Below, in pieces: positions 11,599 to 45,341 of a stretch of DNA of 64,000 bases. The stretch lies in assembly GCF_003018255.1 (NCBI RefSeq), contig NZ_CP027440.1; one strand, 5' to 3'. Made by a program: the position numbers and the translations under genes. Position 1 is the first letter of the stretch, and each line of letters begins with the position of its first letter. The stretch is from Escherichia coli. GTDB lineage: Bacteria > Pseudomonadota > Gammaproteobacteria > Enterobacterales > Enterobacteriaceae. Under the pieces are notes generated by a model that was not told where the DNA came from, searched no databases, and saw only the letters and a program-made list of their open reading frames with translations.

Positions 11599-12546
<948 letters not shown>

Positions 12547-12757
12547 TTAACGACCTCAATTCCACGGGATCTGGTGGCGTTTAAAGTGTGTGGGCATTTT
12601 ACGGGAAGGTTACATTACTGTAAACATGATTAAATTCCTGTTACTTGGATTTGGCTTACAGGTCACATATGTTGCAAAACATATCAGGTTGATTTTAAGA
12701 AGCTGTTGCAAAAGGGCGTTATAACAAAAGGGGAGTGCAGAAGGAGTCTGGGCGGGC

Positions 12758-12773
12758 AATTGGTATAACCAAT
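12758..12773. promoter_or_regulatory. PdhR-type operator (AATTGGTATAACCAAT; ATTGGT-N3-ACCAAT inverted repeat) in cyoA upstream region
   Basis: Inverted repeat read from sequence about 210-230 nt upstream of cyoA ATG; PdhR is a known repressor of the cyo operon. Confidence 0.6.
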
Positions 12774-13005
12774 GCGAAATAAAACAATTATTTAACAAAT
12801 AATTATCATTAAGGTGACAACTGGGTAGTGGGAAAATAAAGACTCATTAGCTGAATCGTGTAAGAAAAATAGAATTCATAAATGGCGTCAATAATTTCCA
12901 GACGCTAAGCCGCACAAAAGAACAAATATTAATAAGCGATGCTGATGTTTATTTAGCCGTAATAATTACGGCGAGTGATTACTACGGCTAAATAATATTT
13001 ACAGA

Positions 13006-14481
13006 TTACGTCAGATGCGTTTTTCGTAGCGCCAGATAATCCAGTAAACCACCAAGCACGACGCCAGAAAGGGCGACTAAAACCCCGACTTCCAGCAGAG
13101 CAGGCAGGAAAGAGAAGTGCGTCAAATCCAGCGCGTCCATCGTCAACAGCAGTAACCACACGGCCAACAGGCTGACGCCCGCCGCCAGTGTCCACATGGC
13201 AAAGGCATAACCTGCCGGATATTCGGTACGGGAGATAAAGTTATCATTTACTCGTGTATATTCAAGCGTCTGGCGACAAACCAGCAGCAAGATAAGCCCT
13301 GGTACGGCAGCGGCGACGGAGAATAGATAGAATGTCGACCAGCCGTGTGCTTCAACAAACCAACCCGCCACGGGGCCGACATAAACTCGCCCTACAGCAG
13401 AAAGCGCTGAGAGCAGGGCAAATTGAGTAGCGGAAAATGACTTATTACACAGCGTCATTAACAGCGCGACAAAGGCTGATGTACCCATCCCGCCACAGAG
13501 GTTTTCGAAAAAGACGGCTGCGCCCATGCTGTAGAGATGCTTATCAGTAATCGACAGCAGCCAGTAACCGGCGTTAGATGCACCTTGTAAAATGCCGAAA
13601 ATCAGCAGTGCACGGAACAGCGACAGGCGCTGCATCAAAATCCCACCGTACAATGCGCCAACAATGGTCGCCAGTAAGCCAAGCGTTTTGTTAACCACGC
13701 CTACTTCACCCGCATCAAACCCGACGCCGCGAATCAAAAACGTGGTTGTCAGGCTCATAGCGAATGCGTCGCCCAGCTTATACAGCACGATAAGAAGCAA
13801 AATAAGCCAGGCATTATTGCGACCAAAGAAATCTCGCAGAGGTGCAACAACCGCTTGTTCCAGCGTTTTGGGCACAGGAATGGTGTCGGTGGGTTCTGGT
13901 GCAAGCAACGTCGCGATAATACAGGGGATCAACAGCGCCGCCATCAACCAGTACATGCCCTGCCAGCCCAGCCATTTATCTGCCAGCCACAGGGCTAAGC
14001 CGCCGGAAACCAGCATCCCTAAACGGTAACCCAGCACGCTGATTGCCGCGCCCGCACCACGTTCTTCTGCCGGGAGCACATCGGTTTTCCACGCATCGAA
14101 GACAATATCCTGGGAGGCAGAGCAAAAAGCGATCACCACCGCCAGTGCCGCCATCCAGCGGAGCTGGGTGCCTGGTTCGAGAAAACCCATCGCCGCAATG
14201 GCGACTAATAACAGAATTTGCGTGGCGAGCAGCCAACCGCGCCGCCGCCCGAAAAATGGGGGCGTGTAGCGGTCCATCAGTGGTGACCAGAGGAATTTAA
14301 AAACGTAAGCCTGGCCTACCAGAGAGAAGAAACCAATGGTTTTGAGATCGATATTCTCGACCGTCATCCAGGCCTGTAAGGTGCCGGACGTCAGGGCGAG
14401 CGGTAGCCCGGAAGCAAAACCCAGGATCAGCAATATGGCTGAACGCGGCTGTTGAAAAATACGTAAATATTGACTGGACAT
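13006..14481 (-). CDS. ampG: muropeptide permease (MFS)
   Basis: Track ORF 491 aa, MSSQYLRIFQQPRSAILL... Confidence 0.95.
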   Translation of the reverse strand: MSSQYLRIFQQPRSAILLILGFASGLPLALTSGTLQAWMTVENIDLKTIGFFSLVGQAYVFKFLWSPLMDRYTPPFFGRRRGWLLATQILLLVAIAAMGFLEPGTQLRWMAALAVVIAFCSASQDIVFDAWKTDVLPAEERGAGAAISVLGYRLGMLVSGGLALWLADKWLGWQGMYWLMAALLIPCIIATLLAPEPTDTIPVPKTLEQAVVAPLRDFFGRNNAWLILLLIVLYKLGDAFAMSLTTTFLIRGVGFDAGEVGVVNKTLGLLATIVGALYGGILMQRLSLFRALLIFGILQGASNAGYWLLSITDKHLYSMGAAVFFENLCGGMGTSAFVALLMTLCNKSFSATQFALLSALSAVGRVYVGPVAGWFVEAHGWSTFYLFSVAAAVPGLILLLVCRQTLEYTRVNDNFISRTEYPAGYAFAMWTLAAGVSLLAVWLLLLTMDALDLTHFSFLPALLEVGVLVALSGVVLGGLLDYLALRKTHLT

Positions 14482-40930: not shown

Positions 40931-40946
40931 TGTGATGAAGATCACA
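40931..40946. promoter_or_regulatory. CRP consensus box TGTGA-N6-TCACA (TGTGATGAAGATCACA) upstream of maa
   Basis: Exact match to both CRP half-sites read from sequence, about 80-95 nt upstream of maa ATG. Confidence 0.6.
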
Positions 40947-41268: not shown

Positions 41269-41643
41269 CTAACAAGATAAACTCGCAGGATTCTCTTTCG
41301 TCGCATTGACAAAACAACGGAATAGTCGATTACCTGACTTCCGCCATTTCTGAAGATCCTGCATATTAATACCATAACTACTGAACAACATAAAGGTGTC
41401 ATCCAGATATTCGTCGATCTGCTCAATGAGCTTATTGTCTTCATTATACTTAATTTTGTAATTAAGTGCGAAGGTCGCAATATGCTCAATCAGTTCATTC
41501 AACTGGAGGTTGATCGCCGAGGTTGGGTCGTTAACCCAGCCATGATTGCTTTCTTCAAGGTTTGCAAGACAGTCATGATACAGGGTTTCACAGAGAAACT
41601 TAAGCTGCGCGATATCATGTCTTTTGGGTGAGTATTCATCCAT
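41269..41643 (-). CDS. tomB: Hha toxicity modulator TomB
   Basis: Track ORF 124 aa; 25 nt upstream of hha (tomB-hha operon). Confidence 0.93.
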
Positions 41644-42144
41644 AACGCGTCCCCTTCTTAGCGGTTGAACTAACGGACACCTTTCGGGATGGAAAAAACT
41701 TACTGACCTGGACTTGCCCTCTCGTTTGTTAGCTTAACTATAAGCCACTCTTTGCAGGTTTTCATCGCATTATTACGAAAAATTACAATTAGGAAGGAAG
41801 CGGGACAGGACTCACTTTTTCATACTAGCACTAACCCGCAGCAGGTAAAAGCAGTTTGCTCGAACTGTTCATAACATTTCAGGATTATCGCCAGATGAAA
41901 TTGGTAACACTAATACCAGGATTGCTCTGAATATGACGTAATAACCGAGGAATGAATAAAGAATTACCGTAAATAATTAAGAATAGCCTCTAAATGATTA
42001 TGGATTATTAAATCTATTAGCGCTACTTAATATAAATTAACTAACAATCAGTATTTTTTATGAATTTTATACGTGTTTAATACTGGTTTTCGTATGAGAT
42101 CCTGAGTTGGTGGTTCAATGACTCCTTAATGTTCGTCGGTTATG

Positions 42145-42188: not shown

Positions 42189-45341
<3,153 letters not shown>

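Follow-up and report, generated by a model that had tools for sequence, protein, structure and literature searches.

The palindrome ATTGGT-N3-ACCAAT upstream of cyoA is the already published PdhR site in front of the Escherichia coli cyoABCDE operon, and its prediction from the letters of a 64,000-nucleotide stretch of DNA (the window) was correct but ordinary. Very probably this known box serves pyruvate-relieved repression of cyoABCDE. Its most likely route of action from position -177 would be through a conserved upstream module, but this specific mechanism we infer with low confidence. The link between pyruvate and the oxidase goes back to a 2007 publication, genome-wide confirmation followed in 2020, and nothing new is added here on the identity of the site. 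The descriptive refinements added are its position at -177, its phylogenetic range, its conserved neighbours and the absence of a partner box.

The PdhR box in the ampG-cyoA spacer

The sequence check placed AATTGGTATAACCAAT at 12,758-12,773. An inverted-repeat scan found the arms ATTGGT (12,759-12,764) and ACCAAT (12,768-12,773) to be 100% complementary around a 3-nt centre, in agreement with the perfect inverted repeat that had been claimed. Written as the 17-mer AATTGGTATAACCAATG (12,758-12,774, strand not assigned), the box is a perfect 6-3-6 palindrome over 12,759-12,773 with its centre at 12,766, and the outermost pair is mismatched. The PdhR consensus (A)ATTGGTnnnACCAAT(T) was taken from published papers including Anzai et al. 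(2020; PMC7660256); the 15-mer matched it at 12 of 12 positions and the 17-mer at 13 of 14, with the core GGTnnnACC intact.

The box is located in non-coding DNA upstream of cyoABCDE, between cyoA, the first gene of the operon (11,599-12,546, minus strand, a 315-aa ORF), and ampG (13,006-14,481, minus strand). Both genes were annotated from complete E. coli genomes matching window positions 12,400-13,200 at 100%. The ampG-cyoA spacer (12,547-13,005) comprises 459 bp with 36.6% G+C, compared with 51.8% for the whole window, as expected from the description of a 459-bp AT-rich control region. Counted from the first base of the cyoA ATG, the box spans 212-227 nt and is centred at 220 nt, so the predicted distance of about 210-230 nt was also accurate. 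The pdhR gene itself lies outside the window, which is E. coli DNA; among 5,426 complete E. coli genomes, 5,423 carry it.

The pattern ATTGGTNNNACCAAT had one perfect match in the whole 64 kb, which was this PdhR box. Based on composition, 0.003 perfect matches would be expected per window and 4.5e-5 per spacer, and none of 100 shuffles yielded one. No second PdhR-like box was detected in 12,400-13,100, where the best other 15-mer matched 8 of 12 positions and 3 of 6 in the core.

Identity with the published K-12 site

The identical 16-mer was found in K-12 MG1655 at NC_000913.3 451822-451837 (2323-2338 of the extracted locus L001). The cyoA start in NC_000913.3 is at 451610, which places the box centre 220 bp upstream, the same distance as in the window. 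The ampG-cyoA spacers of the window and K-12 were 98% identical with 11 substitutions, including one that lies 2 nt away from the 16-mer. The K-12 cyoA box has the same 17-mer and the same 220 bp to the ATG; the window strain is a non-K-12 strain, and there is no functional difference between the two boxes.

Table 1 of Anzai et al. (2020; PMC7660256) gives the cyoA box as AATTGGTataACCAATg, with 13 of 14 positions matched and a genome position of 451054, and in their PdhR genomic SELEX the gSELEX-chip peak upstream of cyoA fell at 450964. After pdhR itself and ndh, this cyoA peak ranked with the most intense (2,315-2,995; PMC7660256). In the older K-12 numbering cyoA spans 449887-450834 (coordinates via Kim et al., 2012, PMC3415461), and 451054 is thus 220 bp upstream of it. 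The printed genome position was taken as the box centre because the K-12 pdhR operator ATTGGTAAGACCAAT is centred at 122052, exactly the position printed for it in the same table (PMC7660256). Since the K-12 and window boxes are both 220 bp from the cyoA start, the published site consists of the same nucleotides. Comparison with curated PdhR sites, which had been suggested as a check, therefore bore out the proposed match, the box centre coinciding with the cyoA entry of Anzai et al. (2020; PMC7660256). According to a column of that table, RegulonDB includes the cyoA PdhR box. Anzai et al. (2020; PMC7660256) and other later papers credit cyoABCDE as a PdhR target to Ogasawara et al. (2007).

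Published work shows in vitro binding of PdhR to the identical K-12 sequence, and the identity of the window box as a PdhR-binding site is held with high confidence. Ogasawara and co-workers reportedly obtained both a gel shift and a DNase I footprint of PdhR on cyoA DNA in 2007.

The cyoA promoter and the distance to the box

A core sigma-70 promoter of cyoA was predicted on the minus strand at 12,596-12,624, with the -35 hexamer TTTACA (12,624-12,619), a 17-nt spacer and the -10 hexamer TAAAAT (12,601-12,596). These hexamers matched 10 of 12 consensus positions and were the sole promoter-like site that the promoter scan found in the spacer; no promoter-like hexamers adjoined the PdhR box. 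The core promoter and the 5' UTR were near-invariant across 35 aligned sequences. Kim et al. (2012; PMC3415461, supplementary file 2) mapped the cyoA transcription start site (TSS) to K-12 450877 on the minus strand, with 245 reads and a 5' UTR of 43 nt, and tabulated no other TSS between the cyoB-internal starts and ampG. The sequence upstream of this TSS, AGGAATTTAATCATGTTTACAGTAATGTAACCTTCCCGTAAAATGCCCACA, contains both predicted hexamers, and K. pneumoniae has a homologous cyoA promoter and start (Kim et al., 2012, PMC3415461). Transferred to the window through identical sequence, the TSS is at 12,589 (minus strand), 7 bases past the predicted -10 hexamer and again with a 43-nt 5' UTR.

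The centre of the PdhR box at 12,766 is at -177 from this mapped TSS, and the -35 hexamer is about 140 bp away. The box thus lies outside the interval from -35 to about +20 in which a classical promoter-occluding operator is placed. The term operator used in the original prediction holds for the identity of the PdhR site but not in the promoter-proximal sense, since the box is located at -177.

Weak plus-strand Cappable-seq starts are found at 450922 and 450931 in the older K-12 numbering, with scores of 1.96 and 1.63. They correspond to about 12,634 and 12,643 (plus strand) of the window, inside the cyoA control region, and both are directed away from cyoA and towards the PdhR box. At the other end of the spacer, an inverted repeat with 21-nt arms, 90% complementary, and a 5-nt loop follows directly after the ampG stop (12,949-12,995) and is partly conserved. 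This repeat has no T-run and was therefore missed by the terminator scan, which detected no canonical terminator between ampG and the cyoA control region.

Conservation of the box across species

The cyoA loci of 80 species were collected, and the 700 bp upstream of each cyoA were scored for a PdhR box. In 23 of 34 Enterobacteriaceae species, including members of Citrobacter, Salmonella, Enterobacter, Leclercia, Kosakonia, Kluyvera, Phytobacter, Atlantibacter and Shimwellia, a box that matched 11 or more of the 12 consensus positions was located 220-232 bp from the ATG. The sequence of these boxes was almost always ATTGGTTATACCAAT, central TAT included. Three more Enterobacteriaceae species had a box with 10 of 12 positions. 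Degenerate arms were observed in Klebsiella oxytoca (GGTGGTTATGCTCATT), K. indica (CGCAGTTATACTCATT) and Cedecea (CCAGTTATAGCTATT), as well as in Enterobacter sp. 10-1 and Pluralibacter gergoviae. The Erwinia species displayed TGGTTATAGCA at 229-230 bp, in which the core ACC is changed to AGC. Within the 700 bp upstream of cyoA no box was detectable in Pantoea, Serratia, Pectobacterium, Brenneria, Photorhabdus, Rahnella, Hafnia, Edwardsiella or Aeromonas. The second-best PdhR-like matches of the other species did not keep a constant position.

In an alignment of the window with 34 Enterobacteriaceae sequences (35 in total), the mean identity of the box 15-mer was 0.89, compared with 0.54 for the remaining region 83-459 bp from the ATG. 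The best 7 of 363 sliding 15-mers every one overlapped the PdhR box. Across the species compared, the site is restricted to the core Enterobacteriaceae, where its conservation is strong. Such conservation gives independent computational support for a functional element that has long been kept at its position.

The distance from box to ATG was 220 bp in Escherichia, Salmonella and Citrobacter and 231-232 bp in all other box-bearing Enterobacteriaceae. This difference is explained by an indel of 11-12 bp between the CRP-like site and the -35 hexamer (window about 12,625 to about 12,650; compared with L005-L031), which splits the Escherichia/Salmonella/Citrobacter clade from the other genera. The indel moves every upstream element by one helical turn, the centre of the CRP-like site shifting from about -70.5 to about -81.5. 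It is compatible with helical-phase dependence, though it represents one evolutionary event only.

Neighbouring candidate elements

Candidate ArcA-like direct repeats, TGATAATTATT TGTTAAATAAT TGTTT, are located on the minus strand at 12,782-12,808, 8 bp upstream of the PdhR box, as three repeats with 11-bp spacing. The pattern TGTTAA-N5-TGTTA occurs three times in the 64 kb, against 0.83 expected; two of these occurrences lie within this run, and TTGTTAAnnAnTTGT from this run was kept in 35 of 35 aligned sequences. Further upstream, the Cra-like box GCTGAATCGTGTAA (12,850-12,863, plus strand) has one mismatch to RSTGAAWCSNTHHW, and its CGATTCAGC block was about 90-100% conserved in the alignment.

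On the promoter side, 44 bp downstream of the centre of the PdhR box, the block TTGTTATAAC (12,718-12,727, minus strand) was also conserved. This block resembles the PdhR box but has even spacing, and in Cedecea (L032, L033) it forms a perfect 12-bp palindrome, TTGTTATAACAA. The CRP-like site TGGCTTACAGGTCACA (12,652-12,667, plus strand; centre at about -70.5) has three mismatches to the consensus, and its TGTGAC half-site was invariant in the alignment and occurs 11 bp further upstream in Pantoea and Serratia. The Cra-like match with its single mismatch and the CRP-like match were each not significant alone in pattern scans, and both are named candidates because they are conserved. A perfect 7-bp inverted repeat, ATATGTT-N4-AACATAT (12,667-12,684), overlaps the conserved TTGCAACAT / TGTGAC block beside the CRP-like site.

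Cra has been reported in the literature to act on cyoABCDE, and a MarA/Rob/SoxS ChIP peak has been published at Salmonella cyoA. Given the conserved ArcA-like, Cra-like and CRP-like candidates and the reported action of Cra, the expectation that this region integrates several regulators appears reasonable.

Possible mode of action and effect in vivo

PdhR, a pyruvate sensor of the GntR/FadR family, binds the 15-17 bp palindrome and would lower transcription of the operon for cytochrome bo3 oxidase. When pyruvate rises, PdhR would be released or inactivated and the terminal oxidase derepressed along with pdhR-aceEF-lpd and ndh. The site would tie the pyruvate node to the choice and the amount of terminal oxidase, given that PDH makes NADH and that Ndh and cytochrome bo3 oxidise it. 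The distal position at -177 has to be squared with this repressor function. Simple promoter occlusion is unlikely, because the box is at -177 from the only mapped cyoA TSS. Instead of a simple block, PdhR at cyoA may be an anti-activator or a co-repressor, which would hinder an activator or stabilise a repressive complex with the adjoining ArcA-like repeats within a conserved upstream module. This putative module would include the Cra-like box at about -265, the ArcA-like repeats at about -195 to -220, the TTGTTATAAC block at about -133 and the CRP-like site at about -70. A more specific form, in which the box is one element of a helically phased module possibly shared with LldR, so that lactate and pyruvate would both tune the terminal oxidase, is tentative and seems the less probable case.

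Other routes to repression were considered and rejected. An extra promoter beside the PdhR box, at which occlusion might occur, was not indicated, with no consensus-like hexamers there and one mapped TSS. Looping between two operators, as at lldPRD, is unsupported because 12,400-13,100 contains no second PdhR-like box. A roadblock to read-through from ampG would be conceivable, given that the interval to cyoA has no canonical terminator and that a long hairpin follows ampG, but nothing was found in its favour.

The literature, including Anzai et al. (2020; PMC7660256), treats cyoABCDE as a PdhR-repressed target. However, in the pdhR-mutant strains of Anand et al. (2019) ndh was up while cyoABCDE showed 'no significant differential regulation'. 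In published transcriptomes of evolved replicates of pdhR-mutant strains cyoABCDE was 'variable' and ndh clearly up. The RT-qPCR re-check of Anzai et al. (2020; PMC7660256) covered aceE and ndh, not cyoA. Pyruvate did not weaken the cyoA gSELEX-chip peak, whose intensity was 2,995 in its presence and 2,315 for PdhR alone (PMC7660256). The effect on cyo in vivo appears weak in the published pdhR-mutant transcriptomes. The remaining value of the cyoA PdhR box lies in this apparent weakness, in a distal position that must fit a repressor, and in its strong conservation limited to the core Enterobacteriaceae.

Comparison with other PdhR and LldR operators

The operator of pdhR-aceEF-lpd shares with the cyoA box the consensus, the regulator and the effector pyruvate. 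They differ in position and in match: the pdhR operator lies close to its promoter, about 40 bp before the pdhR ATG, and matches 14 of 14 positions, whereas the cyoA box, with 13 of 14, is placed at -177. The pdhR operator lies just downstream of its TSS, and its autoregulatory role was reportedly described by Quail and Guest in 1995. Compared with this operator, the -177 position of the cyoA box is atypical for a repressor.

The operators of lldPRD are recognised by LldR, a paralogue from the FadR subfamily, and have nearly the same palindrome, ATTGGC-N3-ACCAAT. At lldP there are two boxes 126 bp apart, whereas cyoA has a single box with GGT instead of GGC. One of the lldP operators is distal to the promoter, like the cyoA box, and the two lldP boxes have been proposed to loop. 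The LldR operators of lldPRD are said to have been described by Aguilera and co-workers in 2008.

The ndh box, ttTTGGTatgACCAATg, is the other respiratory target that emerged alongside cyoA from these SELEX studies (PMC7660256), and the proposed logic is shared, PDH output being coupled to the oxidation of NADH. It matches 11 of 14 positions and is closer to its gene going by the table positions (PMC7660256), compared with 13 of 14 for the cyoA box. In pdhR mutants ndh responds clearly, while cyoABCDE is without a clear response.

Alternative explanations

The main rival to pyruvate-relieved repression from -177 is a bound site with a weak effect in vivo, that is, a genuine PdhR site that is near-silent for cyoABCDE under most conditions, with ArcA, Fnr, Cra and CRP dominating cyo expression. 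The location of the box at -177 from the only mapped TSS, the pdhR mutants in which ndh rises and cyoABCDE is not significantly changed or is variable, and the absence of cyoA from the targets re-verified in 2020 (PMC7660256) would all fit with it. However, no other block of the upstream region is as well conserved, and the box keeps a fixed distance across genera, which argues for selection and against complete neutrality. Published work, reportedly with reporter data of Ogasawara and co-workers from 2007, describes PdhR repression of the cyo promoter. A near-silent site is considered rather improbable. Chance formation of a palindrome in AT-rich DNA, which the AT-richness of the spacer and nothing more would favour, is excluded by the expectation per spacer, the negative shuffles, the cross-genus conservation and the published binding peak.

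It is a good deal less probable that a PdhR paralogue from the FadR subfamily, with the lactate sensor LldR as the likeliest, is the main or an additional user of the site; the operators of such paralogues are almost identical in sequence. Upstream of lldP in K-12 there are two boxes separated by 126 bp, ATTGGCCCTACCAAT, which differs from the PdhR consensus at one position, and ATTGGCAGTGCCACT, and PdhR has been reported in the literature to act on lldPRD, so that cross-recognition occurs in at least one direction. The core GGT...ACC of the cyoA box, however, is that of PdhR sites and not the GGC of lldP, and the paired second box of lldP is lacking at cyoA. Binding of PdhR to cyoA DNA has been directly documented (PMC7660256), and the literature search returned no LldR data for cyoA. 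Slightly less probable again is that the conservation is due to an overlapping site for another factor, such as an extra ArcA half-site or the factor of the TTGTTATAAC block, with the PdhR-like arms secondary. The central GTTATA is kept where the arms have decayed (K. oxytoca, K. indica, Cedecea and Erwinia), a second conserved block, GTTATAAC, lies 44 bp away and the ArcA-like repeats begin 8 bp from the box, all of which would suit such an overlap. Nevertheless, 23 species keep both arms at 11 or more of 12 positions with the PdhR-defining positions included, an offset of 27 bp puts the GGTTA of the box out of register with the ArcA-like repeats and their 11-bp spacing, and PdhR binding is documented (PMC7660256). 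Pyruvate-relieved repression by PdhR through the upstream module thus remains the preferred reading.

Other sites in the window

The second-best match to the PdhR box in the window was ATTGGTAACACTAAT (41,900-41,914), with one mismatch that changes the core ACC to ACT. It is located in the spacer between tomB (41,269-41,643, minus strand) and acrB (42,189-45,338, minus strand), about 260 bp upstream of tomB, and its K-12 counterpart is ATTGGTGACACTAAT at NC_000913.3 480965-480979. Anzai et al. (2020; PMC7660256) assigned a weak gSELEX peak (541/16) at 480770 to tomB and gave an 8/14 box at 480940, both in the old numbering. The better tomB match is about 570 bp from the gSELEX peak and could, but need not, be the sequence that PdhR binds. 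Just past the hha end of the tomB-hha operon, a palindrome that matches the CRP consensus perfectly, TGTGATGAAGATCACA (40,931-40,946, no mismatches), was also found.
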